A stretch of 32,000 nt of DNA from Methylophaga frappieri. GTDB lineage: Bacteria; Pseudomonadota; Gammaproteobacteria; Nitrosococcales; Methylophagaceae. Of the stretch, positions 10,541 to 28,513 are shown in pieces. Numbering within the stretch: the first letter of the stretch is position 1; each line of letters begins with the position of its first letter. The notes below the pieces were generated by a model. It had not been told where the DNA came from. It searched no databases and was given only the letters and a program-made list of their open reading frames with translations. Where the stretch lies: NCBI RefSeq assembly GCF_000260965.1, contig NC_017858.1:1-32000 (forward strand), read 5' to 3'. A program made the translations under genes and the position numbers.

Positions 10541-11322
10541 TGAGCTTTTCCGAGAAACTTAAAGGGCTGATGTTCAAGAAGCCCGCTCCTGGTTATGACC
10601 AGGAAGAAACTGCCGAGATCGAGGCGCAGGACAAGAAATCGAAACGCCAAGGGGACGATGAAAACCCCTATCTGACTGCTCGCCGCACCTGGAATGAGCA
10701 CGTTGGTTCGGTGGTGTCATCACGCCAGACCTGGCAAGTAGTGGGCATCCTGTCATTGATGATTGCGCTTGCCGGTGTCGGTGGCGTTATCCATATCGGC
10801 AGCCAGTCCAAATTCATCCCTTACGTGGTGGAAGTGGACAAGCTGGGTGCAGCTCAAGCGGCGGGGCCGGTTACTGGTTCTGATTCTGCCGACCCGCGTG
10901 TTTTGGGTGCCACTGTGTCGGAGTTCATCGAGAATGCCCGCATGGTGTCGCCTGACGTTGCTCTGCAACGCAAGGCGGTATTTAGCGTTTACGCGCACCT
11001 GGCCCCTAACGATCCCGCGACCACAAAGATGAACGAATGGCTGAACGGCAACGCCGATGCCAGCCCGTTCAAACGTGCCACCAAAGAAATGGTGAGCATC
11101 GACATTACGTCTGTTCTGCCGCAAACGCCGACCACATGGCAAGTGGACTGGACAGAAACCACGCGGGACCGCCAAGGGGTATTGAAGGGCCAACCGGCTC
11201 AAATGCGCGCCCTCATTACCGTTTATACCGCAGACACTTCAACGCAGACCACGGAAGAGCAAATGCGTAATAACCCGCTGGGTATTTACGTGCGTGATTA
11301 CTCCTGGTCACGGCTGCAATGA
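10540..11322 (+). CDS. trbF: TrbF (VirB8 family)
   Basis: 260 aa with a single TM segment; TAATG overlap with trbE; correct operon position. Confidence 0.9.
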   Translation: MSFSEKLKGLMFKKPAPGYDQEETAEIEAQDKKSKRQGDDENPYLTARRTWNEHVGSVVSSRQTWQVVGILSLMIALAGVGGVIHIGSQSKFIPYVVEVDKLGAAQAAGPVTGSDSADPRVLGATVSEFIENARMVSPDVALQRKAVFSVYAHLAPNDPATTKMNEWLNGNADASPFKRATKEMVSIDITSVLPQTPTTWQVDWTETTRDRQGVLKGQPAQMRALITVYTADTSTQTTEEQMRNNPLGIYVRDYSWSRLQ

Positions 11323-11339
11323 TTACGAGGCAATTAACC

Positions 11340-12245
11340 ATGAAGAAACAATTTTCCGCTGTGATCCTGGGTGCTGCGCTGTTGGTGCCCTCTCTGGCTA
11401 CGGTCGCGCACGCGAACGGGCTTGAGGACCAGTTCTTTACCAATGACAACCCGACGCTGACCGATCAAGAGCGCCAAGCCCTGGCGATTGCACAGCGCTG
11501 GCAGGCCGGGGGCGGCAACGGCGGCATTCGTCCTTTCACTGGCCGCAATGGAGCTATCCAGTTTGTATTTGGTGCGCAGTCTCCAAGCGTGGTGTGTGCA
11601 GTCCTCCAGGTTTGTGACATTGCGTTGCAGCCGGGCGAATACGTTAATTCAATCCAGTTGGGTGATACCGCCCGCTGGAACGTAGAACCAGCCATTTCCG
11701 GCACCGGGGCAGGGGAAACCCAACACCTGCTTATCAAGCCGATGGACGTGGGCCTGGAGACAAGCCTGGTCGTCGCTACCGACCGGCGCGTTTATCACAT
11801 TCGCTTGCGTTCTCACCGCACCGAGTACATGCCGCAGGTAGCGTTCACCTACCCGGAAGATGCCCTTGCCAGGTGGGACACGATCCGCAGCCGTGAACGC
11901 CAGCACCGCGAGGACAACACCATCCCGGAAACCCGCGAGTACCTGGGCGACCTGTCGTTTGATTACGAGGTGTCTGGCTCTGCGTCGTGGAAGCCGGTGC
12001 GCGTTTTCAATGACGGTCACAAGACCATCATTCAGATGCCGCGAGCCATGCAGCAAACGGAAGCCCCGACGCTGCTGGTAGTTCGCAAAGATGGCGGCCT
12101 GTTCTCCGACCCTGAAACCGTCATGGTCAACTACCGCGTCCAAGGGGATCGCTACATCGTCGATACGATGTTCAACAAAGCAATCCTTATCTCTGGCGTT
12201 GGCAGCAACCAGGACAAAATCACAATCACTAAAGGGGACGATTAA
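11340..12245 (+). CDS. trbG: TrbG (VirB9 family)
   Basis: Signal peptide MKKQFSAVILGAALLVPSLATVAHA with GAGG upstream. The longer ORF from 11319 is the alternative start. Confidence 0.9.
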   Translation: MKKQFSAVILGAALLVPSLATVAHANGLEDQFFTNDNPTLTDQERQALAIAQRWQAGGGNGGIRPFTGRNGAIQFVFGAQSPSVVCAVLQVCDIALQPGEYVNSIQLGDTARWNVEPAISGTGAGETQHLLIKPMDVGLETSLVVATDRRVYHIRLRSHRTEYMPQVAFTYPEDALARWDTIRSRERQHREDNTIPETREYLGDLSFDYEVSGSASWKPVRVFNDGHKTIIQMPRAMQQTEAPTLLVVRKDGGLFSDPETVMVNYRVQGDRYIVDTMFNKAILISGVGSNQDKITITKGDD

Positions 12246-15189: not shown

Positions 15190-15369
15190 ATGAAACTGCC
15201 AGCCAACCTTAAATCCGCCATGCCGTTAATCGTCTGGCTGGCGTTTTTTGTTGCGGCTCCCGCTCATGCCGCAATCGACAACTCCGGCGTACTGGATGAC
15301 GTCCTGGCTCGCTATTCGGCAGCAGCGGCCTCCTGGGCCGGTGTTATCACCGACGCTGCAACCTGGTTA
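15190..15369 (+). pseudogene. trbL: trbL 5' fragment (first about 60 codons)
   Basis: Signal peptide plus GVLDDVLARYSAAAASWAGVITDAATWL, which aligns with the remembered RP4 TrbL N-terminus (GILDSVLDRFATAASGWAGTIRGAATRLFW). Homology stops at about 15366. Confidence 0.85.
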
Positions 15370-15945
15370 CCTGAATGGTTATCCAATGCCTTGATGTGGA
15401 TCCTCTGGCCATTATTTGCAGTGCTGATTGTGTTAATAGTGTTTTTCACCTTCTCCATTCTCGCCAATATCGTGGCGGCACCATTTAATGGACTATTGGC
15501 GGAAGCTGTGGAAAAACGTTTATCCAATCAGGCTCCACCAGAACAAACTCTCTGGCAATTAATTGCTGATACGCCAAGAATGATTTTTAATGAATTACGC
15601 AAATTGGCCTATTTGCTGAAATGGATGATTCCACTGTTTATCCTTTCTTGGATACCTGGACTGAATCTCATCGCCCCCCTGCTATGGTTGTTTTTTACCA
15701 GTTGGACTCTGGCACTTGATTATCATGACTATCCGATGGGAAATCATTTAATGGGATTTAAGCAGCAACGAGAACTACTCAGAACCAAACGATCGTTGGC
15801 GTTAGGCTTTGGGATGACAACTTTGGGGGCAACAATGATCCCGGTAATAAATTTTCTGATTATTCCAGTCGCCGTGGCTGGTGCAACGGCCTTGTATGTT
15901 GCTCGTTTGCAAAATATGACCAAAATACCAACAAAGGTAGTTTAG
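15190..15945 (+). CDS. cysZ: Chimeric ORF: TrbL(1-60) fused in frame to CysZ lacking about 50 N-terminal residues
   Basis: From PEWLSNALMWILWPL...AAPFNGLLAEAVEKRL...LALDYHDYP...IPVAVAGATALYV the product aligns with E. coli CysZ from VPDWLQWLSYLLWPL...AAPFNGLLAEQLEARL. The base composition shifts at the junction. Confidence 0.85.
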   Translation: MKLPANLKSAMPLIVWLAFFVAAPAHAAIDNSGVLDDVLARYSAAAASWAGVITDAATWLPEWLSNALMWILWPLFAVLIVLIVFFTFSILANIVAAPFNGLLAEAVEKRLSNQAPPEQTLWQLIADTPRMIFNELRKLAYLLKWMIPLFILSWIPGLNLIAPLLWLFFTSWTLALDYHDYPMGNHLMGFKQQRELLRTKRSLALGFGMTTLGATMIPVINFLIIPVAVAGATALYVARLQNMTKIPTKVV

Positions 15946-16260
15946 CGACTATATTTATCAGAATTAAATGTTGGGGGTACGGCTAGGCAACAGTTATTAG
16001 TCGTTTTATAGCACCCTATCTTCTTGAGCATCAGTTGATGCTAATACAAATGATGCAAGATTAAACTATAAGTGATCAATCTGTTCACCGTACTTACACG
16101 AAATAAACTTTCCCTTTAAAACCTTTTAAGTTGCAAAATTCGCACACTGTATGATTATTACCACAATTAACGATTGCGCTTCTAAATAAGAAGCATTATT
16201 ATTACTAAATTCAACAGCAGCAACTAAAATTTCAAGTTAGTGAATTTACAAGGATTAGAG

Positions 16261-18309
16261 ATGAGATTAAAACCACTGTATGTCATGCACGCATTAGCTA
16301 TTGCAAGTTATTCAATGTCTGCAAGCGCTGAGACACAAACTGACACTCAATTTAAAATGCCTGCAATACAAGTCGTGGGTTCTGAAGCCGGTAACATTTC
16401 ACGTCAAACCGGCGCAGTGGTGATAATAGACCGAGAAGAAATAGAACGTATTCAGCCGACATCAACCGAAGATGTTTTGCGTCGCGTCCCAGGTATTAAC
16501 GTTAAAACTGAAGAAGAGTCGGCTGTAGTTAGTAATGTTGGAATTCGCGGTCTCTCAGCAAGTGAATCAAAATCTTTAATTTTGGAAGATGGGGTTCCTG
16601 TCGCTCCAGGTTTATTTATTGGTAACGAACGTTACTTCAATCCACGTATTCAGCGTATGGAGAGTATTGAAATTCTGAAAGGATCCTCTTCTTTGCGTTA
16701 CGGGCCTTCCACTATCGGCGGTGTAATCAACTACCAGACGAAAACCCCTGATGATGGTGTGCATATTTCTACACGTTTTGGTTCTTTTAATACCCGTGAG
16801 GCAACTTTAGAAGCCGGTGGTCGTACAGAATCTGGCGATAGTTTTGCAGGCATAGTTGCCACAAGAGCTCTAAGCGATGGATTTATGGATAAAGATTACC
16901 GCATGAGTGACGTGATGATTAAAGCGGGTACAAAATTAAACGAAGATCATAGCCTTGGTGTGAAGTATTCATACTATCAAAATGAAGCTAATATCTCTTA
17001 CCGTGGGATGTTCTTGGATGATTACAAAGCAGGTAGAACATACAACCCTGCACCAGATGATTATTTTTTAACTGATCGCAGAGCTGTTGATGTCAACCAT
17101 GAATGGCATTTGAATAATAACGCTACATTGACAACATTGGCTTATTGGAGTGAAGTTTCTCGGGACTATTGGCGGTATAACGTCGATACCCCTGCTTCAA
17201 ATAATGCTGGGCGTTGGATTTACACTGATAACCTGACGGGTAACAACCGTAGCTTTGAACGATATGGTGTAGAAACCCGTTTGGCACTTGATCACAACAT
17301 GTTCGGTTTAAACAATGAAGCTGAGTTTGGCATACGTTGGATGACTGAAGAATCAGATGATAGACGTATCAGGGCCACGCGTGAGCAGGATCGTACGGGT
17401 ATTAATGACAGGCATAGGGAAGATAGCGCTGATAGCTTAGCTGCGTACGTTACCAACCGTTTCGAAATTACAGAACGCTTTGCTGTGACGCCGGGCCTTC
17501 GCGTTGAATCATATACACAGAAACGCAAAGTTTTAACACAAAACAATGAATCAGAAAGCACTTCAAATACTGAAGTATTGCCAGGTATTGGTGCCACCTA
17601 TCAATTGGTCCCTCAAGCACAGTTATATGGTGGTGTTTATCGCGCATTTTCACCTGCCTCAAATGGTGTAGCGCTCGACGGTCTGCAAGATCAAAATTTA
17701 GATGGCGAACGTTCAGTAAACTATGAATTAGGGGTACGAGGTGGCACCGGACCTATGACATATGAACTTACCGGTTTTTATATGGACTTTGATAATCAGG
17801 TTGTTACGGGAAACTCAGATCCTAACTTGTCGCAATCAAACGCTGGAGAGACAAAACATTACGGCTTGGAAGCTGCAATGGGTTATGAATTAGGTGGTGG
17901 TTTCAGTGTCGATGCAAATCTGACCTGGGTGCCATACTCTAGATTCGAAACGGGCGAAAATAGTGGAAATCGTTTGCCATATGCACCTAAATTCCTAGCA
18001 AACGTAGCTTTAAACTACACCCAAGGTAAATTCTCAAGTTCATTAACTGCTCACCACCGTGGTGAGCAATATGGTGATCCAACTAATTTAGAGGATATTC
18101 CAAGTGATGCTGCAGGTGGTATCTGGGGTGGTGAAATGCCGTCTTACACGGTATACGATCTTTTTGCGCAGTATCAAGTTAGTGAGCAATTTCGTGTACG
18201 CGGTGCTGTAAAAAACCTGTCTGATAAGCTTTACATCACCGGTTTACGCCAAGGTATTTATGTTGGCCCAGAACGTTCTTTCGAAGTTGGATTTGATTAC
18301 AGTTTCTAA
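16261..18309 (+). CDS. TonB-dependent outer-membrane receptor (siderophore/iron type)
   Basis: Signal peptide ending SASA, a plug domain (IQVVGSE...VLRRVPGINV...IEILKGSSSLRYG), a long beta-barrel and a terminal aromatic residue (FDYSF). The ATG at 16261 follows AAGGA. Confidence 0.92.
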   Translation: MRLKPLYVMHALAIASYSMSASAETQTDTQFKMPAIQVVGSEAGNISRQTGAVVIIDREEIERIQPTSTEDVLRRVPGINVKTEEESAVVSNVGIRGLSASESKSLILEDGVPVAPGLFIGNERYFNPRIQRMESIEILKGSSSLRYGPSTIGGVINYQTKTPDDGVHISTRFGSFNTREATLEAGGRTESGDSFAGIVATRALSDGFMDKDYRMSDVMIKAGTKLNEDHSLGVKYSYYQNEANISYRGMFLDDYKAGRTYNPAPDDYFLTDRRAVDVNHEWHLNNNATLTTLAYWSEVSRDYWRYNVDTPASNNAGRWIYTDNLTGNNRSFERYGVETRLALDHNMFGLNNEAEFGIRWMTEESDDRRIRATREQDRTGINDRHREDSADSLAAYVTNRFEITERFAVTPGLRVESYTQKRKVLTQNNESESTSNTEVLPGIGATYQLVPQAQLYGGVYRAFSPASNGVALDGLQDQNLDGERSVNYELGVRGGTGPMTYELTGFYMDFDNQVVTGNSDPNLSQSNAGETKHYGLEAAMGYELGGGFSVDANLTWVPYSRFETGENSGNRLPYAPKFLANVALNYTQGKFSSSLTAHHRGEQYGDPTNLEDIPSDAAGGIWGGEMPSYTVYDLFAQYQVSEQFRVRGAVKNLSDKLYITGLRQGIYVGPERSFEVGFDYSF

Positions 18310-18321
18310 TCCTAAAATAAA

Positions 18322-18350
18322 TGGGGTGCAGCACACATTGCCGCACCCCA
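18322..18350. terminator. Bidirectional hairpin between the convergent receptor and bfd genes
   Basis: TGGGGTGC-13 nt-GCACCCCA forms a perfect 8-bp stem. Confidence 0.55.
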
Positions 18351-18370
18351 ACTTTATATATCGGTTTCTT

Positions 18371-18574
18371 CTATTTAAGAACTAATTCATCAAGCAAGTT
18401 CTCAATATCATATTCACAGGAACCACAGCCTGAAATTGCGCCAGTTTTTCGTGAGATAGTATCGGTATCGACGATACCCTGCTCGACCAGGCTGATGATC
18501 TTCCCACGGGTTGTTCCGCTGCAATCACAGATCACTTCATCAGTTCTGTCTGAGGCGTTATTGTTGTTACTCAT
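18371..18574 (-). CDS. bfd: Bfd-like (2Fe-2S) ferredoxin (bacterioferritin-associated)
   Basis: 67 aa with the CDC...C-x2-C pattern (ICDCSGTTRGKI...GCGSCEYDI) typical of the BFD domain. Confidence 0.85.
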   Translation of the reverse strand: MSNNNNASDRTDEVICDCSGTTRGKIISLVEQGIVDTDTISRKTGAISGCGSCEYDIENLLDELVLK

Positions 18575-18843
18575 GCAAGTTAGCTACCTGACAATAATAA
18601 TTTTCAAAACAATTTTTCAGTTTGGTTTAGCATATTAAATAACCTAGGGCTTGTTGATCTTTCATATCCACCACAGCTGGCGGCTATTTTTGTGTCCGAC
18701 AAGGCGGAAAGCACGCAGTGTAGCCATCCTAGATAAGTAATTGACAACACAGGCGGTCGCAAAAATAGTCCCTGCCCTTCGGGTTGTGACTGAAAAAGCG
18801 CCACTTATGTCCACGGATGGACTGTATGCCGGCGCGCCAGGGA

Positions 18844-20172
18844 GGTGCGCGTCGGTCTGCGTTGCTCGTCGCTGGCTGGGTGCTCGCTTACGGCGGGGTT
18901 TTCTTCCTGGGGTTTGGCGGTTCGCGCTGGACCTCTGACATGGCAATCAACTACTACAAAACCGTGCTCGGGGTTGCTGCTCAACTCATGGCAATGGTGC
19001 TGTTGATTGGCATCGGTAAGACCTTCCTGGATGACTATTACAACCAAATGAGCGAGGGCATCAGCCTGAAAGAAATGGGCGTAATGCTCATTGTCGCGGT
19101 GATCCTTCTCGTTCTCGTGACCAAAGTTCCTCAGATGCTCGCGGGCGTCATTACCGGCGCTAGTGTGGGCGGTGCTGGCATTGGTTCTTTCGGTGCAGGC
19201 GCGGCGCTTGGCGCGGCAGGCATGGCAGCAGCAGCGGCAGCCACTGGCGGCGCAGCGATGGCAGCAGGCGCGTCCAACATGGCAGGCGGAGCACAAGCCC
19301 TAATGGCCGCATTCAGCAAAGCCAATGAGAACGTGGCAAACGGTAGCGACATTATGTCTGCGTTCACAGGCGGCGGTGGTGACGGCGGTGGCGGCGGTGG
19401 CGGTGGCGGTATGCCCGCCGAAGAAAGCACAGGTGATACCCCGTTCGCTCAAGCGGCTGGCTTTGGGGGCGGTGAATCTTCTGGCGGTGCCCAAGCCTCT
19501 AGTGGTGGCGAATCATCCAGCGGCGGCGAGTCCTCTAGCTCTAGCAGTAGTGACCAGGGAAGCACGGAAACAGCCAGTGCAGACACTGGATCAGCGGACA
19601 GCCAAAGCTCAAGCGAAGGGCAGGGCGATAGCTCTTCTGGTGCTCAGGCAGCAACAGCAGCAGCGGCAACCGGCGGCTTTATGGCCGGAGCCACGAAAGC
19701 GGGCAGGGTAGCAGCCGATACCGGCGCGAACCTGGCAAAAGGAACCGGGGCGGTTGCCAAGGCCAAGGCTGGACAAATGAAGGCCAAAGCCATGCAGCGC
19801 ATCGGTGATACAACAGGCGGCAAAATTGCTGCCGCGATCAAAGGCCAAGGTCAAGGTCAAGGAGGTGGTGACACAGGAAATGCAGGTGATAGCGGCTCGT
19901 CAGAATCTGGAGCCTCTGACAGCTCCCCGTCGTTCGGCAGCGATAGCTTGAGCGGTGGCAACGGCGGCGGCTGGGTAAACCAAACAGGCGGCTTTGATGC
20001 TCTGTCCAGCGAGGACCAGGACAAGGCCCGCCAATCACACGCTGAGTGGCAAGCACGCGACCCGGAAAAGCACACCTTCGACGTTGGGGACTACGTTTCG
20101 TATGCCCAGGAACGCCAGCAGGAACGCAATGAAGAGGTTGCCAGCTTTGTCAATAAAGGCCGTTCGGCCTAA
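18844..20172 (+). pseudogene. trbL: trbL 3' fragment (VirB6 family, C-terminal about 440 codons)
   Basis: LLVAGWVLAYGGVFFLGFGGSRWTSDMAINYYKTVLGVAAQLMAMVLLIGIGK is the conserved TrbL core, followed by a Gly/Ser/Ala-rich tail. The 5' limit is approximate (18844-18860). The ATG at 18817 is probably fortuitous. Confidence 0.85.
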
Positions 20173-20191
20173 CTAGATAGGAGTAATTGAA

Positions 20192-20671
20192 ATGAAACCA
20201 TTTTTCGTTGCCCTTAGCCTGTTTGCAGCCGCATTTGCGTTTACTGCACCGGCTCAAGCGGCCTCTCAAGATGAATGTGCAATTTGGATCTGCCTGCCAG
20301 GTGGTTTCCCTTCTGGCTGCGGTGCGGCCAAGTCAGCAATGCGTGACCGCATCAAAGACATGAAATCCCCGCTCCCCAGCTTCTCGTCCTGCGCGGTTAA
20401 CCCGCCGAATGGTAGTGGCAGTCACATGACTTCCGATCATGGGTTTGCTGCGTTTATTCCTGCTCACCGGGTGTGTAGCCAGTACCGCTACCGCCGCGAT
20501 GACCGGGAATGTGTCGCCTGGGAAACAGTGCCCGATCGTTACGTGAAGAACACTCGTTGTCGCACTGACCGCGACGGCAACCGCACGCCGCGCGGCTGCA
20601 CCAGGACGTACCGTTGGGCGGAAGTGTTCGTTGAAGGGCAGCTTGCAGGCCCAACCTACTACTGGAACTAA
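20192..20671 (+). CDS. trbM: TrbM
   Basis: Signal peptide plus ECAIWICLPGGFPSGCGAAK, a TrbM-family motif; lies after trbL. Confidence 0.85.
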   Translation: MKPFFVALSLFAAAFAFTAPAQAASQDECAIWICLPGGFPSGCGAAKSAMRDRIKDMKSPLPSFSSCAVNPPNGSGSHMTSDHGFAAFIPAHRVCSQYRYRRDDRECVAWETVPDRYVKNTRCRTDRDGNRTPRGCTRTYRWAEVFVEGQLAGPTYYWN

Positions 20672-20681
20672 GGGGGTCGTC

Positions 20682-21314
20682 ATGCTGCCGTTCATTGCTG
20701 ATATGCCACCCCTGGAACAAGAGCGCGTTGTGTGCTCGATCTCGGCTGCCGTGAAATATGAAGTGCCCGCCAATATTGTGCTGGCCGTAGCCGAGAAAGA
20801 AGGCGGTAGGCCGGGCCAGCGGGTGCGTAACTCGAACGGTACGCATGACGTTGGACCTATGCAGTTCAACACTGCATACCTGGGCGACCTGGAGAAATAC
20901 GGCATTACTGCGGACGATGTGGCAGCCTCTGGTTGCTACTCGTTCGACCTCGCCGCCTGGAGACTGCGCGGGCATATCCTGCACGACTCCGGGGACATTT
21001 GGACCAGGGCCGCCAACTACCATTCCCGCACACCGAAATATAACGCGATCTACCGCACCGACTTGATGCAGAAAGCCGTCAAGTGGGCCGACTGGCTTGA
21101 TGAACATTTTTCGACTGTCAACGTGACCGCCCAAGGTGGTGCCACTCCTGGCGATGGGACTGCTATGCAGCAAGTCATCCAGGAAGCGGCCAGAATCGAG
21201 GCTGACAGCTCTATTGAACAGTCTGGACGCCAAGGGCAGGGGAGTTACAGCCCAAGCCAGCAAAGCGGCTATGTGCCGCGCACGATCACGTTTAGTGCGG
21301 GGGCAGGGCAATGA
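20682..21314 (+). CDS. trbN: TrbN lytic transglycosylase (VirB1-like)
   Basis: SLT-type motif VLAVAEKEGG...HDVGPMQFN. AAGGGGG lies upstream of the ATG at 20682; the longer ORF from 20631 overlaps trbM. Confidence 0.88.
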   Translation: MLPFIADMPPLEQERVVCSISAAVKYEVPANIVLAVAEKEGGRPGQRVRNSNGTHDVGPMQFNTAYLGDLEKYGITADDVAASGCYSFDLAAWRLRGHILHDSGDIWTRAANYHSRTPKYNAIYRTDLMQKAVKWADWLDEHFSTVNVTAQGGATPGDGTAMQQVIQEAARIEADSSIEQSGRQGQGSYSPSQQSGYVPRTITFSAGAGQ

Positions 21315-22039
21315 CCGATAGCGCTGCCTCTCTGAAATCCGTCTGGACCATGCCCCGCCTGGTCGTTGCCGATGGCACTGTGGAAGGCTTGAAGTGGCTG
21401 GGCCTGCTGCTCATGACCGGGGATCACGTCAACAAGTACCTTTTCAATGGCACATTGCCCTTTCTGTTTGAGGCTGGCCGCCTGGCAATGCCGATCTTCG
21501 TCTTTGTCCTGGCGTACAACCTGGCCCGCCCGGGCCAACTCGAAAGGGGAGTGTACCAACGGACAATGAAGCGACTCGCCGCTTTCGGCGCCTTAGCTTC
21601 AATCCCGTTCATTGCCCTGGGCGGTCTATACGCTGGATGGTGGCCGCTCAATATCCTTTTCACGCTCCTGGCCCTGACGGCCACGGCGTACCTGATCGAG
21701 CGGGGCAGCATCGTATGGGCCGCCCTGGTGCTCATGAGCGCCGGGGCAATGGTCGAATATTGGTGGTCTGCGCTCCTGTTCGGTTTGGCCGTGTGGTCAT
21801 ACGCCAGAAAGCCGACCTTGGCGGCGGCAGGGGTTGCAGTTATCGCCTGCGCTGCCCTGGGTTTCATCAACGGCAACATGTGGGCACTGGCAGTGCTTCC
21901 GGTGTTGCTTGCGGCAACCTGTTTTGATTTGAGAATGCCCCGGCTCCGCTGGGCATTCTACGCCTATTATCCGTTACACCTCGGCGCTCTGTGGCTTATT
22001 CGCATTCCAATGAGCCATGCCGGATACCTGTTTTTTTGA
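21311..22039 (+). CDS. trbP: TrbP, TraX-family membrane acyltransferase
   Basis: 242-aa polytopic membrane protein with the TraX-like N-terminus LKWLGLLLMTGDHVNKYLF. It is the last trb gene, with an ATGA overlap with trbN. Confidence 0.8.
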   Translation: MTDSAASLKSVWTMPRLVVADGTVEGLKWLGLLLMTGDHVNKYLFNGTLPFLFEAGRLAMPIFVFVLAYNLARPGQLERGVYQRTMKRLAAFGALASIPFIALGGLYAGWWPLNILFTLLALTATAYLIERGSIVWAALVLMSAGAMVEYWWSALLFGLAVWSYARKPTLAAAGVAVIACAALGFINGNMWALAVLPVLLAATCFDLRMPRLRWAFYAYYPLHLGALWLIRIPMSHAGYLFF

Positions 22040-22773: not shown

Positions 22774-22805
22774 GGGAGTCAGGGAGTAGGGGCGGGAGTA
22801 GGGGC
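22774..22805 (+). repeat. Tandem GGGAGT(AGGGGC) repeats in an intergenic region
   Basis: GGGAGTC at 22774, then GGGAGTAGGGGC at 22782-22793 and again at 22794-22805. Confidence 0.7.
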
Positions 22806-22809
22806 GGAT

Positions 22810-23388
22810 ATGAAGATACCCAAGCCAGCATTTAAGGAAAGAAAAATGACAGAAACGATAACATCGAATGTTCACCGGATTAAGTTCAATTCCAGGCAAG
22901 AGTTTGCTGAGTTTGCCACGAGGGATGAAACGCCGCGATACAGCGTTATTTGCTCTAGCTTTTACCGGAAGCATCACTTGGTACTTGGAATTGCGCCTGG
23001 TGAAGCTCTTTTCTCAAACAACCAGACGGCTCTAAATAAAGTGGCTATTGCCTGGGATCGCAACCAGGTGAAGGTTTCACTTGTACCAACCGACCGCGAC
23101 CCTATTTATTGTGTTCCGTCCGATTGGCCAGATCATACTTGGCTTGTTACTGCCACCGCAGATTTTCCAGATGATCTTATTGAGCCAGTTTTTGCTATAG
23201 ATGGGCCTTTATTGTCCGCATCGCAAGAGAAAGCGGAAGAAATGGCTCTTGAACAACTCTGCAACCAGGACGAACACCCGTTACTTTTTATAGACAAGCA
23301 GGACGATATCGACAAAGAATTTTTGTCCGAAATTCTGGACGATGATGCAGAAAAATCCCCTTGGGAGTTTAACGGACAAAGCGCATGA
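22810..23388 (+). CDS. Hypothetical acidic cytoplasmic protein (180-192 aa)
   Basis: Intact ORF. The alternative start at 22846 has the better SD (AAGGA). The tail is acidic (DDIDKEFLSEILDDDAEKSPWEF) and the stop overlaps the next start (ATGA). Confidence 0.6.
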   Translation: MKIPKPAFKERKMTETITSNVHRIKFNSRQEFAEFATRDETPRYSVICSSFYRKHHLVLGIAPGEALFSNNQTALNKVAIAWDRNQVKVSLVPTDRDPIYCVPSDWPDHTWLVTATADFPDDLIEPVFAIDGPLLSASQEKAEEMALEQLCNQDEHPLLFIDKQDDIDKEFLSEILDDDAEKSPWEFNGQSA

Positions 23389-24353
23389 AAAAAGTAAGCA
23401 GCCTTAGCGGTATCTTTGACTTACTGCGCCCAATTAGCTGGATTGCATTGATTTCACTGCTCGCGCTCTCCAGCCGAGCAATCAGTTATGACTGGCTGTT
23501 ACTGGCCGCGTTGTGGCTTGCCCTGGCAGTCTCAGCCGGTGTATGGGCTATTCAGCAACCCTGGATTAAGGAAGCCAAGCGGCCATTCGAGCGACACACC
23601 AGCATCGCGCTTTCCATCCTTCTGATACCGATCCTTGCCTATATTGTGGCTTTAGCGTCTGGAGTCATTCTGGAGCGCATTTCTGCCGCCCGCTACGACA
23701 AAGCCCGCATTGAGTTTATGACCGACCCGGATGGCTTCCCCTTCATCAAGAATTTCGCTCTAGAACACTACGGGGCGCATGTCGTCCTAACGTCTCCCGT
23801 GTCAGGATGGACAACCAGCTCTTTCCCGTTACCTCATGCAAGCGCCGCATTCATGGCTATTGGCCCTGGGTTCTGTGAGCTAACCTTGAATCAGGAGAAC
23901 GTATTACGGGGGTTTAGTGGTGACGATCCCGGACTTTGGGTTAAAGGCGTAATGATCCATGAACTTGCGCATTGTCTCGACATATCCAGAGATATGCCCT
24001 CTTTCACCAACAATAAAATCGGTATTAAATCAATTGCTCCCACTGCTGCTGGAAATGTCGTCGATCTGGAAAGTCACATTGAAGCAGCTAATGGGCTTGC
24101 AACCAAACGTTGGCGAGAAGCTCTAGCTGACGTATTCGCTGTGGGCTACTGGAGAATGGTGGAGCCTTCCGCCAATAAGCTTGTAGCCGATCTGAAAGAG
24201 AAACGGCGCAATGGGGCCACTGCTCACACAACGAGCTGCTGGATACAATATGCAGCGAACGCCCCCTTACCAGACAATCTTAGTAGCCTACTTTCATGGG
24301 CTGATGAAATACGAACCACGGCGCATTGCGCACTGCAACATAAAAGAAGTTAA
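23385..24353 (+). CDS. Hypothetical membrane-anchored zinc metalloprotease (HExxH)
   Basis: Three N-terminal hydrophobic helices, then a soluble domain with HELAH (23958-23972) and a downstream EALADVFAVGYW. It is translationally coupled to the preceding ORF. Confidence 0.6.
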   Translation: MKKVSSLSGIFDLLRPISWIALISLLALSSRAISYDWLLLAALWLALAVSAGVWAIQQPWIKEAKRPFERHTSIALSILLIPILAYIVALASGVILERISAARYDKARIEFMTDPDGFPFIKNFALEHYGAHVVLTSPVSGWTTSSFPLPHASAAFMAIGPGFCELTLNQENVLRGFSGDDPGLWVKGVMIHELAHCLDISRDMPSFTNNKIGIKSIAPTAAGNVVDLESHIEAANGLATKRWREALADVFAVGYWRMVEPSANKLVADLKEKRRNGATAHTTSCWIQYAANAPLPDNLSSLLSWADEIRTTAHCALQHKRS

Positions 24354-24651
24354 AAATTCAAGATGCCGATAACGAAGCGACGCCAATTCACTGACAGCGC
24401 GATTAAACAGGCTTATGAGGAAGCCGGTAGCCTTTCCGGTATGGCCGAACGTCTCAATATCACATATCCCACGGCTGCGACGTGGGCACATGAACTAGGG
24501 CTAACCCTGAAACACCAGGGGTATAACAAGCCAACACTGGAGATAACAGGCTTACAGTGCCGCCATGCGCGGGAATACCTTGGATTAACGCGGGATATGT
24601 TCTGTGCAAAATCCAAGGTGAGCAAAACGGCCATACGTGAGTTTGAGCTAG

Positions 24652-26210
24652 CCCGGATTTCTCATGACGGGATAAAAGAAAGCGGCTGAAAGTGCTATGA
24701 TTTCAAGAGTCTAACCAATCCACCAAGCACCAACAGCCGCTTCCAAAATGGTACCTGAAAAACTGACCTTCTCGCCACTCTCTCGCCGTCAAATTGAAGC
24801 CGATTTCTCCGGTGGTCACATCACCTCCGATGCCGGACTGCTTTTGCTTCGGGAAGTCGACAATCAACACCAGCTCACTCAGCGCCTGGCTACGGTGCTG
24901 GACGATGCCCGTAATCCCGTGCTGGTTCGCCACAAGCTTCAAACCATGGTCCGGCAGCGGGTCTTTGGCGTGGCTGCCGGGTACGAAGACCTCAACGATC
25001 ACGAGGCGCTACGCGCTGATCAGGCACTTCAGACCGCGATTGGCGAAGAGGCCATTCTGGCGGGAAAATCAACACTGTGCCGAATGGAGCAGCGCGTGGA
25101 CCGGCAGTCCGTGGTCAAGGCCCACGAACTGCTGTGGCATCACTTCATTGAACAGCACGAGACTCCACCCAAGGAAATTGTGCTGGACTTCGATGGCACT
25201 GATATTCCAGTGCATGGCGACCAGCCCGGCAAGTTCTTTAACGCCTACTACGATCACCATTGTTTCTTCCCGCTGTACGTGTTCTGCGGCCGTCACCTGT
25301 TGGTGAGCTACCTGCGCACCAGCAATCGAAGCGACAGCCGCCACAGCTGGGCCATTCTGGCCCTGCTGGTGAAGTTCATCCGGCAGTACTGGCCGGATAC
25401 CCGCATCGTGTTCCGGGGTGACAGCGGCTTCTATCGCCCCCGATTGCTGAGCTGGTGCGACCGGAATAACGTGGATTACCTTGTGGGCATCAGCAAAAAC
25501 AGCCGGCTGCTCAAGGAGGTGGACGTACCCTCGATGCTGGTTCGCAGGGCTCACGGGGAGTTGGGAGAAAAAGTCTCTGCCACCTACCGGTTCCAGTACC
25601 AGGCCCGAACCTGGAAACACCCCCGCTGGGTGATCGCGCGTCTGGAGGAGGGCGAACTGGGTGCCAACCCCAGGTTCATTATCAGCTCCCGTTACGACGA
25701 CGGCGTTAAACTCTACTACGAGCAATACTGTGCCCGGGGTGACATGGAAAACCGGATCAAGGATCAGCAGTTGTGTCTGTTCGCAGATCGCACCTCCAGC
25801 ACGCGGTGGTGGACCAATCAGTGGCGGCTGCTTCTGTCGGGCTTTGCCTACACGTTGTTCGAGCGATTACGCGCTCACCTGAAGAAAACGCCCTTCGAGC
25901 GCATGAGCGCCAGTAACCTGCGGCTGAAGCTGATCAAGGTGGGCGCGGTCATCATTCGCAACACTCGGCGCATACGGGTGTTGATGAGCGATGCCTATCC
26001 TTACAAAGACGAACTCTCTGACCTGGTACGCCGTCTGGTTCCGGGATAGAAGCCCGGGCTCCCCCGGCCCGACTCAATGGGGGAAAGGGGGCCGTGTGTC
26101 CGGACAACAGAAATTGATCAGTTATTAATCAATCGCGGCCGCAAATGAGCGGTAATGGCGGTAACCTGCACAGTCTGCGAGACTTGCCGGGGACCTATGA
26201 GAAATCCGGG
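24652..26210 (+). mobile_element. IS1380-family insertion sequence (about 1.56 kb)
   Basis: Terminal inverted repeats CCCGGATTTCTCAT (24652-24665) and ATGAGAAATCCGGG (26197-26210), flanked by CTAG at 24648-24651 and 26211-26214 as a 4-bp target duplication. A single DDE transposase ORF lies inside. Confidence 0.85.
24748..26049 (+). CDS. IS1380-family DDE transposase
   Basis: 433 aa. Motifs LDFDGTDIPVHGDQPGKFFNAYYDHHCFFPLYVF and FRGDSGFYRPRLLSWC are typical of the IS1380 / DDE_Tnp_1 group. Confidence 0.85.
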   Translation: MVPEKLTFSPLSRRQIEADFSGGHITSDAGLLLLREVDNQHQLTQRLATVLDDARNPVLVRHKLQTMVRQRVFGVAAGYEDLNDHEALRADQALQTAIGEEAILAGKSTLCRMEQRVDRQSVVKAHELLWHHFIEQHETPPKEIVLDFDGTDIPVHGDQPGKFFNAYYDHHCFFPLYVFCGRHLLVSYLRTSNRSDSRHSWAILALLVKFIRQYWPDTRIVFRGDSGFYRPRLLSWCDRNNVDYLVGISKNSRLLKEVDVPSMLVRRAHGELGEKVSATYRFQYQARTWKHPRWVIARLEEGELGANPRFIISSRYDDGVKLYYEQYCARGDMENRIKDQQLCLFADRTSSTRWWTNQWRLLLSGFAYTLFERLRAHLKKTPFERMSASNLRLKLIKVGAVIIRNTRRIRVLMSDAYPYKDELSDLVRRLVPG

Positions 26211-26330: not shown

Positions 26331-26952
26331 ATTGGCCTTTTTCTTTTTGGTGCTTGGCCCAAACAAGTTTAACCTGACTTTCACTACAACCGGCCAGCCG
26401 TGCAGTTTCAGCAATCGTATGGTTAGGCCGCAGCTTAACGATAAGCTCATGTGTTTTGTGGTCAGCCTTTCGCCCCCGGTACTTGCCTTTTTTCTTCGCC
26501 TGACTGATACCCTGTCGCTGGCGTTCCCTACGGTCCTCGTAATCATCGCGGGCCATCTGCAAGGACAGCTTCAAAAGCAGCTCCTGGACGGCCTCCAGGA
26601 CGATCCTGGACACACCTTCGGCCCCAGCAACAAGGTCGGTCAAATCGACAACGCCAGGCACGGCCAACATGGCCCCTTTACCCTGTATCGTAGCAATCAG
26701 GCGCTCCGCTTCCGGCAGCGGTAAGCGGCTGATACGGTCTATTTTCTCCGCAATCACCACGTCCCCAGGCTGCAAGTCCTCGATCATGCGCAGCAGCTCG
26801 GGGCGATCTGCTCGCGCTCCTGACGCCTTCTCTCGATACACTCCGGCCACGTAGTAACCGGCAGCCCTGGCGTCCAGAATAATTTCCTCCTGGCGTTCCA
26901 GGTCTTGCGAGTCGCTACTAACTCGCAAGTAAATCCGGGCATTCTGTGTCAT
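26329..26952 (-). CDS. parA: Serine recombinase / multimer resolvase (IncP ParA-type)
   Basis: N-terminal catalytic motif ARIYLRVSSDSQD, the conserved GDVVIAEKIDRISR and a C-terminal HTH (HTIAETARLAGCSESQV). Confidence 0.9.
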   Translation of the reverse strand: MTQNARIYLRVSSDSQDLERQEEIILDARAAGYYVAGVYREKASGARADRPELLRMIEDLQPGDVVIAEKIDRISRLPLPEAERLIATIQGKGAMLAVPGVVDLTDLVAGAEGVSRIVLEAVQELLLKLSLQMARDDYEDRRERQRQGISQAKKKGKYRGRKADHKTHELIVKLRPNHTIAETARLAGCSESQVKLVWAKHQKEKGQ

Positions 26953-27224
26953 TTTTCAGACTCTTCATTGTTCCTCCTGGTTTGCTTTGCTTTTTTCTGC
27001 TTCTGAAAAGCGAAGGGCACACAGCTTGCCGTAACCAAGAGAACACCAATACCCCCCAGTAATTGACTGAATGTGTATCTCACGCCGAAGAAGGTGACAG
27101 CAGTTGCACCCACTGCGAACAGAATCGTTGGAATGAGAAAAGCCAAACGGGAGGCGAAAGTATTTAGCGGGCCGTCAGTCAACAGCCCCTCTACCTGGTG
27201 CTTCTTCAAAAAGTAGTCGCTCAT
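26949..27224 (-). CDS. Hypothetical 91-aa two-TM membrane protein
   Basis: Two hydrophobic helices and a basic tail. ATGA overlaps link it to both the upstream ORF and the resolvase gene. Confidence 0.55.
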   Translation of the reverse strand: MSDYFLKKHQVEGLLTDGPLNTFASRLAFLIPTILFAVGATAVTFFGVRYTFSQLLGGIGVLLVTASCVPFAFQKQKKAKQTRRNNEESEK

Positions 27225-27469
27225 GGCTTATCACCTTCCTTATTGTCTGACCAGTTGTAATTTCCGTTATCGTCCAGAACATTCCTTATAGCTTCTTTCA
27301 GTTGCGACAAGTGCTCAATAGCTACCTGTAATTCGGCAATTGCCCGGTCGTCCAGGACCTCCCATCGCTCCCACATGATTTGCGCAGCCCGCGCAACTTC
27401 ATATCGACCATCTATATAGTCAGTCCCTGACTCCAAGATTTTTTCAACACTAGGCACATAGTAATCCAT
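27221..27469 (-). CDS. Hypothetical 82-aa acidic protein, first gene of the resolvase operon
   Basis: The ATG at 27469 follows GGAGAGGG. The track ORF begins at an upstream TTG. Confidence 0.55.
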   Translation of the reverse strand: MDYYVPSVEKILESGTDYIDGRYEVARAAQIMWERWEVLDDRAIAELQVAIEHLSQLKEAIRNVLDDNGNYNWSDNKEGDKP

Positions 27470-27515
27470 TTCCCTCTCCCCTATAGTGGCCAATTTGGGT
27501 ATACTCTATTTGACT

Positions 27516-27543
27516 ATTATAAAAGAACCGGCCAAAATATCAA
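27516..27543 (-). promoter_or_regulatory. Promoter of the resolvase operon
   Basis: Minus strand reads TTGATA (27543-27538), a 16-nt spacer, then TATAAT (27521-27516). It is flanked by AAATAGAGT direct repeats (plus-strand ACTCTATTT at 27503 and 27551). Confidence 0.6.
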
Positions 27544-27556
27544 CAAAGCAACTCTA

Positions 27557-27590
27557 TTTAGCTAGTATTTTTTAGCCAAGTCAATTTAGC
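27557..27590 (+). repeat. Three TTTAGC half-sites in 14-bp phase
   Basis: TTTAGC at 27557, 27571 and 27585; this is the half-site of the OA/OB operators. Confidence 0.5.
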
Positions 27591-27606
27591 CACCAAAGGG
27601 GGCAGC

Positions 27607-28470
27607 GTGGAAGAAACGAACAAGAAAGAGGTTGAAGCGGCCCGCGCCGATGCCATCGAAAAGGATCAATGCTTTTCAAAAGGCCGCCTTCGGGATGAAT
27701 TTAGGATGAAGCCTAAACCCGAAGCCGAACCTGTAGCGTTCTACAAGAACGGTTACGGCGGCAAATTCGGGGTTTACAAGATATCCGATTGTGTACCCAT
27801 GAAAGCCCGTAGCACCAAGCCGCCGAGCGAGAAGCAAAAGCGTGCCAGGGCGATTTTGGCCGTCAAGGCGAAGCTGAAAAGCAATGAAGCGAAAACGTCC
27901 TGCAGGGCGGTCCAATGGCTTGATGAAAACCCGATTTTCCTAGACACCGAGACAACGGGCCTCGATGACAAAGCGCAGATTCTGGAGCTGGCTATCAGCG
28001 ACGCCCAGGGGAGTATTTTGCTAAAAACGAGACTGCGGCCAACGGTGCCGATAGATCGAGAAGCCGAGGACATACACGGCATAACAGCCGAGTCTCTAGC
28101 GAACTCGCCAACCTGGCCGGAAGTGTCAGCCCAAGTGCGAAAAATCCTCTGTGGCCGCTCTCTGGTAATCTTCAATGCAGACTTTGATACCCGCATGTTA
28201 CGCCAAACTTCGGCGGCGTTTGGTGAGCCGGTCGAATGGGTCAGCGAACTTAAAACGCATTGCGCGATGTACCTGGCTGCCGATGCGTTTGGCCCAACAA
28301 ACCGGCACGGCTCGATCTCTTTGGCCGATGCGGTGCATTTTGCAGGGGTGACTTGGCGGGGGGTTGCTCATGGGGCTGTTGCGGACACCCTAGCCACTGT
28401 TGACCTGGTGCAAGCGATAGCCAGCATCAGGCGCAACCTGGAAACCGAGCTGGCCGATCTGGAAGAATGA
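27607..28470 (+). CDS. DEDDh 3'-5' exonuclease (DnaQ/epsilon-like) with a unique ~105-aa N-terminal extension
   Basis: ExoI FLDTETTGL (27943-27960 encodes DTETTG), ExoII VIFNADFDTRML and ExoIII HGAVADTLATVDL. The GTG start follows AAGGGGG. Confidence 0.8.
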   Translation: MEETNKKEVEAARADAIEKDQCFSKGRLRDEFRMKPKPEAEPVAFYKNGYGGKFGVYKISDCVPMKARSTKPPSEKQKRARAILAVKAKLKSNEAKTSCRAVQWLDENPIFLDTETTGLDDKAQILELAISDAQGSILLKTRLRPTVPIDREAEDIHGITAESLANSPTWPEVSAQVRKILCGRSLVIFNADFDTRMLRQTSAAFGEPVEWVSELKTHCAMYLAADAFGPTNRHGSISLADAVHFAGVTWRGVAHGAVADTLATVDLVQAIASIRRNLETELADLEE

Positions 28471-28497
28471 AAAAGCCCCGCAAATGCGGGGCCTTTT
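28471..28497. terminator. Bidirectional terminator between the exonuclease gene and traC
   Basis: GCCCCGCA-AA-TGCGGGGC flanked by AAAA and TTTT. Confidence 0.75.
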
Positions 28498-28513
28498 GTC
28501 ACGTTTACCTCTC

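Follow-up and report, generated by a model that had tools for sequence, protein, structure and literature searches.

Exchange of part of trbL for a chromosomal receptor-ferredoxin block in the IncP-1-like plasmid pJAM7-48, a probable case of joining by microhomology

Introduction

How does a plasmid come to carry a block of chromosomal genes when no transposon is seen to have brought it? This question is raised by pJAM7-48 (CP003381, 47,825 bp), an IncP-1-like plasmid of Methylophaga frappieri JAM7, in which foreign DNA lies inside the conjugation gene trbL. We analysed positions 1 to 32,000 of its sequence (NC_017858.1), a stretch that we call the window. From the genetics of RP4, TrbL (a homologue of VirB6) is required for mating-pair formation, and plasmids probably acquire chromosomal genes only rarely by illegitimate recombination at microhomologies, with no transposon taking part. 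We find that the central part of trbL has been exchanged for one contiguous chromosomal block, which encodes a TonB-dependent receptor (TBDR) and a bacterioferritin-associated ferredoxin (Bfd), and that short stretches common to both parents mark the two joints.

In the published account pJAM7-48 is described only as an IncP-alpha-like plasmid, and the legend of the supplementary map lists 'CysZ', 'Tnp' and 'DnaQ-like' among other genes (PMC5918138). Our literature search on pJAM7-48 found no mention of a disrupted trbL, and the capture event is apparently new to the literature. The process itself is already known; pJAM7-48 is a fresh natural example of it, whose functional effects we infer.

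A chromosomal block replaces the centre of trbL

The backbone of pJAM7-48, with a GC content of about 55-60%, carries trfA, ssb, trbA and trbB through trbP in canonical order. The genes trbA-B-C-D-E-F-G-H-I-J-K-L-M-N-P are collinear and adjoin trfA-ssb, as in IncP-1-type Tra2 operons, and all of them are full length except trbL. Exact matches to proteins recorded for pJAM7-48 were obtained for a chimeric open reading frame (ORF) at the trbL locus (AFJ03838.1), the receptor (AFJ03839.1), the transposase of an insertion sequence (IS) (AFJ03852.1) and a DnaQ-like exonuclease (AFJ03856.1). The nearest database plasmids, at 88-91% nucleotide identity, are p7ME01 (Cycloclasticus zancles, NC_021918), pHP-42 (Marinobacter adhaerens, NC_017508), pMHAD031 (LC623889) and a Nitrincola iocasae plasmid (CP044223), which have the backbone and gene order of pJAM7-48 (trfA-ssb-trbA-trbB...trbP) and are typed in PLSDB as IncP / MOBP / MPF_T, conjugative. 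Closer relatives come from metagenomes. They were chosen by an identical TrbK (63 blocks indexed in the collection, 23 contigs read), and contigs are referred to below by labels such as L005. Four of these relatives (L004, L005, L006 and L008) show 98.7% nucleotide identity, have identical TrbJ and TrbK, and possess an intact trbL of 618-620 codons.

We probed the window by tblastn with every Tra2 protein of L005. TrbA-K and TrbM-P were matched over their full length at 96-100% identity, whereas TrbL was matched only by residues 1-60 and about 178/188-620 (18844/18874-20169). These results bear out the first-pass annotation of this DNA, which had read trbL as split and partly deleted and the other trb genes as intact. 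Homology to the intact relatives stops at 15368/15369 and restarts at 18861, within about 20 bp of the breakpoints that had been placed at about 15366 and 18850. Approximately 382 bp of trbL are gone (L005 positions 11191-11572, residues 61-187, 127 residues), which makes the event a replacement, as had been proposed, rather than a simple insertion. The size of the insert has to be corrected from 3.3 kb to 3.5 kb. Its low GC content stands, with a drop to approximately 0.35-0.44 between roughly 15400 and 18800 against 0.55-0.60 in the backbone, but the earlier figure of 35-40% does not, the insert as a whole having 42.4% GC. The features of the locus, in order of their first position, are these:

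15190-15369, plus strand: 5' remnant of trbL, codons 1-60 (signal peptide and 33 further residues; 96.7% identity in tblastn with L005 TrbL)
15190-15945, plus strand: chimeric ORF of 251 aa, TrbL residues 1-60 in frame with CysZ residues 62-252 (Pfam EI24, 2.1e-41)
15359-15369, no strand: left junction microhomology, CAACCTGGTT(A), common to the parental trbL and the chromosomal cysZ (three-way alignment)
15370-18873, plus strand: 3504 bp of captured chromosome, or 3515 bp with the left microhomology; collinear with cysZ-TBDR-bfd-mdoG as found in a Methylophaga lineage
16261-18309, plus strand: TonB-dependent outer-membrane receptor of 682 aa, intact and with its own upstream region kept (Pfam Plug and TonB_dep_Rec_b-barrel)
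18322-18350, no strand: hairpin with a 12-bp stem (8 GC pairs), from a terminator scan, between the convergent TBDR gene and bfd
18371-18574, minus strand: bfd, bacterioferritin-associated [2Fe-2S] ferredoxin of 67 aa (Pfam Fer2_BFD, 5.7e-13)
18575-18873, no strand: first 299 bp of the donor's 523-bp bfd-mdoG spacer (alignment to L041-L043 and L046)
18861-18873, no strand: right junction microhomology, 12 of 13 positions matching; GTTGCTCGTCGCT in window and chromosome, GTTGCTCGCCGCT in the sister plasmid
18874-20172, plus strand: 3' remnant of trbL, codons 188-620 (Pfam TrbL profile positions 126-215 of 215 only)

In L005, the one intact relative that was scanned, the Pfam TrbL domain spans residues 65-272; the lost residues 61-187 correspond to profile positions 1 to about 125 of 215, more than half of the conserved domain, and two hydrophobic segments fall within them according to a simple hydropathy scan. 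No single polypeptide of the window spans positions 1-215 of PF04610. The 3' fragment reaches 110.3 bits against TIGR02783, under the cutoff of 128.85, and covers positions 156-296 of 298. It has no native start codon, and its first in-frame ATG, at 18817, lies inside the chromosomal DNA and is preceded by no convincing ribosome-binding site. None of the protein records matches any of the starts tested for this 3' ORF.

An intact trbL is found in the relatives. It is a single gene of 572-624 aa in nine of the ten loci shown, and further copies of 618-622 aa are intact as well. The p7ME01 and pMHAD031 plasmids, both inspected gene by gene, have an intact trbL of 610-618 aa, unlike pJAM7-48. The chromosomal block is present in none of the four marine IncP-1-like plasmids named above, whose accessory DNA sits between the trb and tra regions, whereas the block of pJAM7-48 lies inside trb.

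The tenth locus (L059 6240-7884, on a 42.5-kb contig of GCA_040969085.1) has no trbL called over 1.6 kb and a lone ORF of 74 aa at its end; its trbL could be frameshifted or affected by a sequencing error.

The block matches the chromosome of another Methylophaga lineage

Positions 15352-18873 of the window (3522 bp) align in one piece to the contigs L041, L042 and L043 at 98.5% identity. A further contig, L046 (JGI 3300049839), is 100.000% identical over 15736-18873 (3138 bp); beyond that point it leads into the chromosomal region upstream of mdoG and does not enter trbL. Because L041-L043 align uninterrupted and L046 runs on into the chromosome, the insert can be taken as one contiguous chromosomal block. 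A look-up of the receptor retrieved a 30-kb contig (L003) with the order ligA-zipA-queF-FGGY kinase-cysZ-TBDR-bfd-mdoG-mdoH, and the housekeeping genes that flank the locus indicate the chromosomal origin of the block. The receptor protein of the plasmid is identical to the chromosomal copy in L003, and a protein identical to the plasmid Bfd is encoded on 13 chromosomal contigs.

The names of exact-sequence clusters assign the donor locus to Methylophaga, and the donor lineage is represented by GCA_025933435.1, GCA_025933595.1, JGI 3300060028 and, at 100% identity, JGI 3300049839. The chromosome of JAM7 is ruled out as the donor, its CysZ (P0183, on the 2,697,465-bp contig) being 76% identical, and no chromosomal receptor of M. 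frappieri occurs among the best 120 homologues, which reach down to 69% identity. JAM1 and GP59 are ruled out too, with receptors of 91% (JAM1) and 85% (GP59) amino acid identity; the JAM1-type locus is 81-90% identical to the insert at the nucleotide level, and mdoGH does not lie beside bfd there. Among GTDB representatives, the best receptor matches are only 77% identical (Halopseudomonas, Pseudomonas). The look-up for a donor of the insert, recommended when the lesion was first described, thus ends in the 100% match of L046 over 3138 bp, and by these comparisons the donor is a Methylophaga lineage other than the present host JAM7. Since there are 0 substitutions over those 3138 bp, the capture is recent, as had been suggested from the intact state of the neighbouring genes. 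The origin of the insert outside the host means that either the disrupted plasmid changed host later or foreign DNA entered JAM7.

The last part of the block required separate attention. Positions 18653-18860 (208 bp, 54% GC) were at first unmatched in L003, in the window itself, in the relatives and in PLSDB, with no Rfam match and no significant fold, and a 24-mer taken from them had 0 matches in metagenome_contigs and genome_contigs. Filler DNA from a third source is nevertheless ruled out, as L041-L043 and L046 are contiguous through this segment. L003, which matches the window only over 15352-18652, carries another allele of the bfd-mdoG spacer. Strains of the donor lineage have two unrelated alleles of part of this spacer (L003 12393-12519 versus L041 5478-5701), and that of the plasmid is of the L041/L046 type.

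Microhomology at both joints

At the left joint the plasmid parent reads ...GACGC(G/T)GCAACCTGGTT(G/A)TTTTGG, the chromosome ...GACGCCAACCTGGTTACCTGAATGG and the window ...GACGCTGCAACCTGGTTACCTGAATGG. The shared stretch is exact over 10 bp in comparison with L004-L008 and over 11 bp in comparison with p7ME01. The fusion of TrbL to CysZ is in frame because this stretch encodes Thr-Trp-Leu in both the trbL and the cysZ frames. At the right joint, marked here by a slash, the chromosome reads ...GGTCTGCGTTGCTCGTCGCT/TATTTAG and the closest plasmid allele (L056-L058, 99.78% identical downstream) ...CTGTTGTTGCTCGCCGCT/GGCTGGG, and the window reads ...GGTCTGCGTTGCTCGTCGCTGGCTGGG. The single mismatch at this joint carries the chromosomal base, and therefore the crossover lies within CGCT, at 18870-18873.

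Matches of this length are rare. When 2 million random junctions between trbL and the chromosome were simulated, a fraction of 1.4e-5 had at least 10 bp of microhomology, and trbL shares only 22 10-mers and 3 11-mers with the 12.2-kb donor locus. A repeat search at 15359-15370 and 18861-18874 found no inverted repeats and no direct repeats or target duplication, and the insert contains no transposase, its ORFs being CysZ, the receptor and Bfd only. The first-pass annotation was therefore right that mobility machinery is not visible at the junctions, and its account of a replacement holds; the microhomology, the in-frame TrbL'-'CysZ chimera and the identity of the donor were absent from it.

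Because above-chance microhomology between the parents occurs at both joints, the insert as a whole is collinear with one locus of the donor, a short recipient segment has been replaced and no signature of an element is present, we consider that double microhomology-mediated illegitimate recombination, with no mobile element involved, is probably the best explanation of the replacement in trbL. According to this proposal a DNA end that arose inside trbL during replication or repair of the plasmid would pair with the chromosome of a Methylophaga cell at the 11 nt that trbL and cysZ have in common. Copying or joining of about 3.5 kb of that chromosome would bring in 'cysZ, the TBDR gene, bfd and a stretch of the bfd-mdoG spacer, after which the end would go back to trbL 382 bp downstream by means of the match of 12 out of 13 nt.

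Three routes could lead to this outcome. The plasmid may have undergone template switching of the type known as microhomology-mediated break-induced replication (MMBIR) or fork stalling and template switching (FoSTeS) while it resided in a cell of the donor lineage; incoming donor DNA may have been taken in by double illegitimate recombination in JAM7; or the plasmid may have integrated illegitimately into the chromosome and been excised aberrantly. We favour template switching, because the plasmid and donor lineages share mobile DNA (a Tn3-family transposon end, 127/127 nt between L056 and L042), which therefore suggests that they have resided together. By this route the plasmid lacking trbL would have reached M. 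frappieri afterwards, presumably mobilised in trans.

The proposed event resembles several known processes. Hülter and Wackernagel reportedly observed in 2008 double illegitimate recombination (DIR) of long segments during natural transformation. The short-patch form (SPDIR) of Acinetobacter baylyi has been summarised recently (bioRxiv 10.1101/2023.11.22.568220). In DIR and SPDIR of A. baylyi, as in pJAM7-48, foreign DNA replaces a recipient segment with microhomology at both joints, and no recombinase site, target duplication or extended homology is needed. The 3.5-kb segment of pJAM7-48 is far longer than the patches of SPDIR, and with 11 bp at one joint and 12 of 13 bp at the other its microhomologies are among the longer ones in the range; in contrast to those laboratory-selected events, it occurred on a plasmid of a natural isolate. 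MMBIR and FoSTeS have been established mainly for amplification junctions of eukaryotes and E. coli. The likeness to them lies in a templated insertion with a local deletion, a return on the same strand nearly to the point of exit and microhomology at each switch; in pJAM7-48, however, the second template would be another replicon, the chromosome, and any part played by replication is conjectural. R-prime and F-prime plasmids are likewise conjugative plasmids with a contiguous, syntenic piece of chromosome. Classical primes are formed when a plasmid integrates by way of an IS or of shared homology and is then excised aberrantly; they keep their transfer functions and usually retain an IS at the joint, whereas pJAM7-48 has no IS at either joint and the capture has destroyed an essential transfer gene.

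Sister plasmids and alternative explanations

Sister plasmids of the same lineage have suffered other insertions. Over 18861-21597, L056 (JGI 3300039448), L057 (SRR13090250) and L058 (SRR13090253) share 99.78% identity with the window, and all three have the end of a Tn3-family transposon in trbL:

L056 1-138, L057 1-40, L058 1-33: Tn3-family end, just upstream of the equivalent of window position 18861

This insertion corresponds to about L005 position 11547, some 22-25 bp upstream of the right crossover of the window. The same end is found, 127/127 nt, in the donor-lineage chromosome L042 (679-805), approximately 5 kb from bfd. In the same three plasmids a second transfer gene is struck, trbP/traX being interrupted (equivalent of window position 21597; L056 ~2875-2998, and the tails of L057 and L058) by an element that starts CCCGGATTTCTCATAG. 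The terminal repeat of this element is that of the IS1380-family element of the window, and its interior is different. Either trbL and trbP have been struck repeatedly in this lineage, or the window derives from an ancestor that bore the transposon, the second of which we judge unlikely.

On the latter supposition the history would have had several steps. An ancestor with a Tn3-family transposon in trbL would have suffered breaks induced by the transposase, or formed a cointegrate with the donor chromosome through the transposon, and microhomology-mediated deletions would then have removed the transposon while the chromosomal block stayed behind. The position of the insertion in plasmids so similar to the window speaks for it, the chance of falling within 25 bp of a junction being roughly 0.002-0.05, and so does the presence of the transposon end in L042, which indicates that the plasmid and donor lineages draw on a common pool of transposons. 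However, no transposon sequence is left in the window; the orientation of the L042 transposon, reasoned through simple homologous recombination, would give a block opposite to that observed; three events are needed instead of one; and both final joints would still require joining by microhomology. We hold this course of events to be unlikely. A conventional mobile element, such as an IS, a composite transposon, ISEcp1-like one-ended transposition, an integron cassette or a genomic islet, might instead have carried the receptor genes, given that transposons are active in the plasmid lineage and that an intact element of the IS1380 family, to which ISEcp1 belongs, lies 5.8 kb away (24652-26209). 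Yet neither inverted repeats nor a target duplication, a transposase or an integrase exists in or beside the block; its two ends lie inside codon 61 of cysZ and midway through an intergenic spacer, points at which four or more chromosomes of the donor lineage have plain syntenic sequence with no element boundaries; and 382 bp of target have been deleted where a few bp duplicated would be expected. We regard carriage by such an element as highly improbable.

A misassembly also has to be considered, in which contaminating reads from a Methylophaga chromosome were misjoined into the JAM7 plasmid. The structure is known from a single assembly of 2012, the donor lineage differs from the host and no independent contig spanning a junction was found. 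Such a chimera would, on the other hand, need two false joins on the same strand, leaving and re-entering one gene 382 bp apart, on overlaps of only 11-13 bp, which are under the overlap or k-mer length of any assembler. Further, two independent contigs 100% identical to the window break close to the joints: L009 (SRR15101633) ends 8 bp before the left one and L054 (JGI 3300049839) begins 13 bp after the right one, L054 coming from the same metagenome as the identical chromosomal contig L046. Breaks near both joints are the pattern expected if the insert is a repeat common to plasmid and chromosome, and would be unexpected with an intact plasmid and a chromosome only, because a match of 11-13 bp makes no branch in an assembly graph. 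An assembly chimera thus seems very unlikely to us. The idea that TrbL is naturally short or split in this lineage, and still functional, was foreseen by the first-pass annotation and checked in the relatives. Nothing more than the in-frame ATG at 18817 speaks in its favour, and the evidence given above stands against it: a single trbL of 572-624 aa in nine of ten relatives with an identical TrbK (L059 being without a call), the loss of profile positions 1 to about 125 of 215 of the Pfam domain as placed in L005, and the score of the 3' fragment under the TIGR02783 cutoff. We give this idea practically no credence.

Several points weigh against double illegitimate recombination as we propose it. 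No independent contig or read was found across either joint: k-mers of the junctions had 0 matches in metagenome_contigs and viral_contigs, exact look-ups of the chimeric ORF and of the 3' ORF yielded no independent copy spanning a junction, and a 42-aa cluster mate of the chimera (P0278) consists of the TrbL N-terminus only and does not cross the left joint. The evidence for the structure is one finished assembly together with the indirect testimony of the contig breaks. The three routes set out above would yield the same product and are inseparable from the sequence. In the sister plasmids a Tn3-family element has inserted about 25 bp away from the right joint, which hints at a role of an ancestral transposon, and hence at a history of more than one step. 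Finally, the disrupted plasmid resides in a species other than the donor, which is awkward for a plasmid dead for transfer, except after mobilisation in trans or an entry of the DNA from outside; the same mismatch between host and donor sits awkwardly with the transfer-defective or helper-dependent status discussed below.

Genes carried by the block

The chimeric ORF at the left joint is misannotated, with names that conflict: its GenBank entry (AFJ03838.1) reads 'Conjugative transfer protein TrbL', its RefSeq entry (WP_014708255.1) 'sulfate transporter CysZ'. It is not a full-length CysZ, since its first 61 residues, including the first hydrophobic segment, have been swapped for the N-terminus of TrbL, and the NCBIfam model for CysZ (PRK04949) matches it only over profile positions 56-249 of 254.

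The receptor has clear Plug and barrel domains and scores 220.7 bits against the siderophore-receptor model TIGR01783, just under the cutoff of 223.5. Its score against the FecA equivalog NF041676 is low (194.9 versus a cutoff of 1100) and the signalling domain is absent, the match beginning at profile position 106, so that the name given by JGI, 'Fe(3+) dicitrate transport protein', is not supported. By its sequence we would assign it to the siderophore-receptor type at the family level only. A search with the 19-bp E. coli consensus, allowing up to 6 mismatches, found no Fur box in 15900-16300 or 18560-18880, where a divergent Fur box is possible. The description of the block as iron-uptake cargo is therefore upheld at the level of families (a TonB-dependent receptor and a BFD-type ferredoxin), and is not upheld by a FecA equivalog score or an E. 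coli-type Fur box.

The captured spacer has a weak promoter-like site on the plus strand (18741-18769) that points into the 3' part of trbL, in a scan whose count of promoter-like sites was not above that expected from shuffled sequence. The region contains no tRNA genes and no significant Rfam match, the sole match (E = 0.51, under the gathering score) lying at 15250-15275 in the 5' remnant of trbL.

Consequences for transfer and for receptor dosage

Going by what is known of RP4, the loss of trbL has probably abolished self-transfer of pJAM7-48. The plasmid would then be without a mating channel of its own and would spread vertically or with a helper only; the proposal that it is transfer-defective or helper-dependent seems a reasonable one by analogy with RP4. 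The hairpin at 18322-18350 probably acts as a terminator and may stop transcripts that start at the trb promoter; together with the antisense bfd it would probably lower the expression of trbM, trbN and trbP. Tools that judge a plasmid by its gene content would type pJAM7-48 as 'conjugative' despite its broken VirB6 homologue. At the same time, the plasmid would now supply an extra receptor and Bfd at plasmid copy number.

A rise in copy number of the same cassette has occurred in GP59 (M. nitratireducenticrescens; CP021973 at ~1.895-1.926 Mb; L071, L072, L073). There the unit receptor-bfd-'aminotransferase is repeated four times in tandem, with a period of 3095 bp, beside cysZ; it is present in single copy in JAM1-type contigs and L074. 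This tandem 3095-bp amplification has been reported in GP59, a strain of the same denitrifying biofilm (PMC5918138). The two cases are alike in that the copy number of an orthologous receptor-bfd cassette next to cysZ is raised. They differ in that the amplification in GP59 is a chromosomal tandem duplication and not a plasmid capture, and in that its receptor allele has 85% amino acid identity. There is no evidence of a shared microhomology mechanism, the duplication joint of GP59 having a microhomology of only 1 bp. Speculatively, two independent rises in the copy number of the receptor-bfd cassette hint at selection on receptor dosage.

A broader scenario can be drawn from the fourfold amplification in GP59 and from the insertions in trbL (Tn3 family) and trbP (IS) of the sister plasmids, which would point to a single bioreactor community in which iron-receptor dosage is under selection and conjugation is selected against. 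In that scenario a broad-host-range plasmid captured the block between species in nature by double microhomology joining, the receptor-bfd cassette was kept as advantageous in a methanol-fed marine biofilm, and the loss of conjugation was tolerated or favoured. We offer it tentatively and think it unlikely to be right in all its parts. If it is true, a plasmid with a dead type IV secretion system has still crossed from the donor lineage to M. frappieri, which implies mobilisation in trans. Apart from any scenario, there are few natural cases in which both parental sequences can be had at 100% identity or close to it; with both parents and both joints resolved to the base, pJAM7-48 offers a worked example.

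Other features of the window

Further accessory DNA lies downstream of the Tra2 operon. The element whose terminal repeat recurs in the trbP of the sister plasmids is the following:

24652-26209: intact IS1380-family element of 1558 bp, with its transposase at 24748-26049 (AFJ03852.1); the terminal inverted repeats, CCCGGATTTCTCAT, are perfect over 14 bp, and the target is duplicated over 4 bp, CTAG

L050 and L052, two of the relatives, lack this element, and among named transposases those of Marinobacter come closest to its own. Downstream of a gene of the OmpA family, at 22785-24358, an accessory slot varies among the relatives, being occupied by pairs of 84+167, 271+319 or 192+322 aa; the window has the pair of 192+322 aa, and its ORFs in this slot have no Pfam match. 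Finally, a segment of about 1.56 kb at 26952-28508, with GC content dipping as low as 43%, holds the gene for a 3'-5' exonuclease of the DnaQ-like type (ORF 27607-28470, plus strand; Pfam RNase_T) and stands, between the resolvase and the TraC/ArdC-like genes, in place of about 550-700 bp in L004 and L050.

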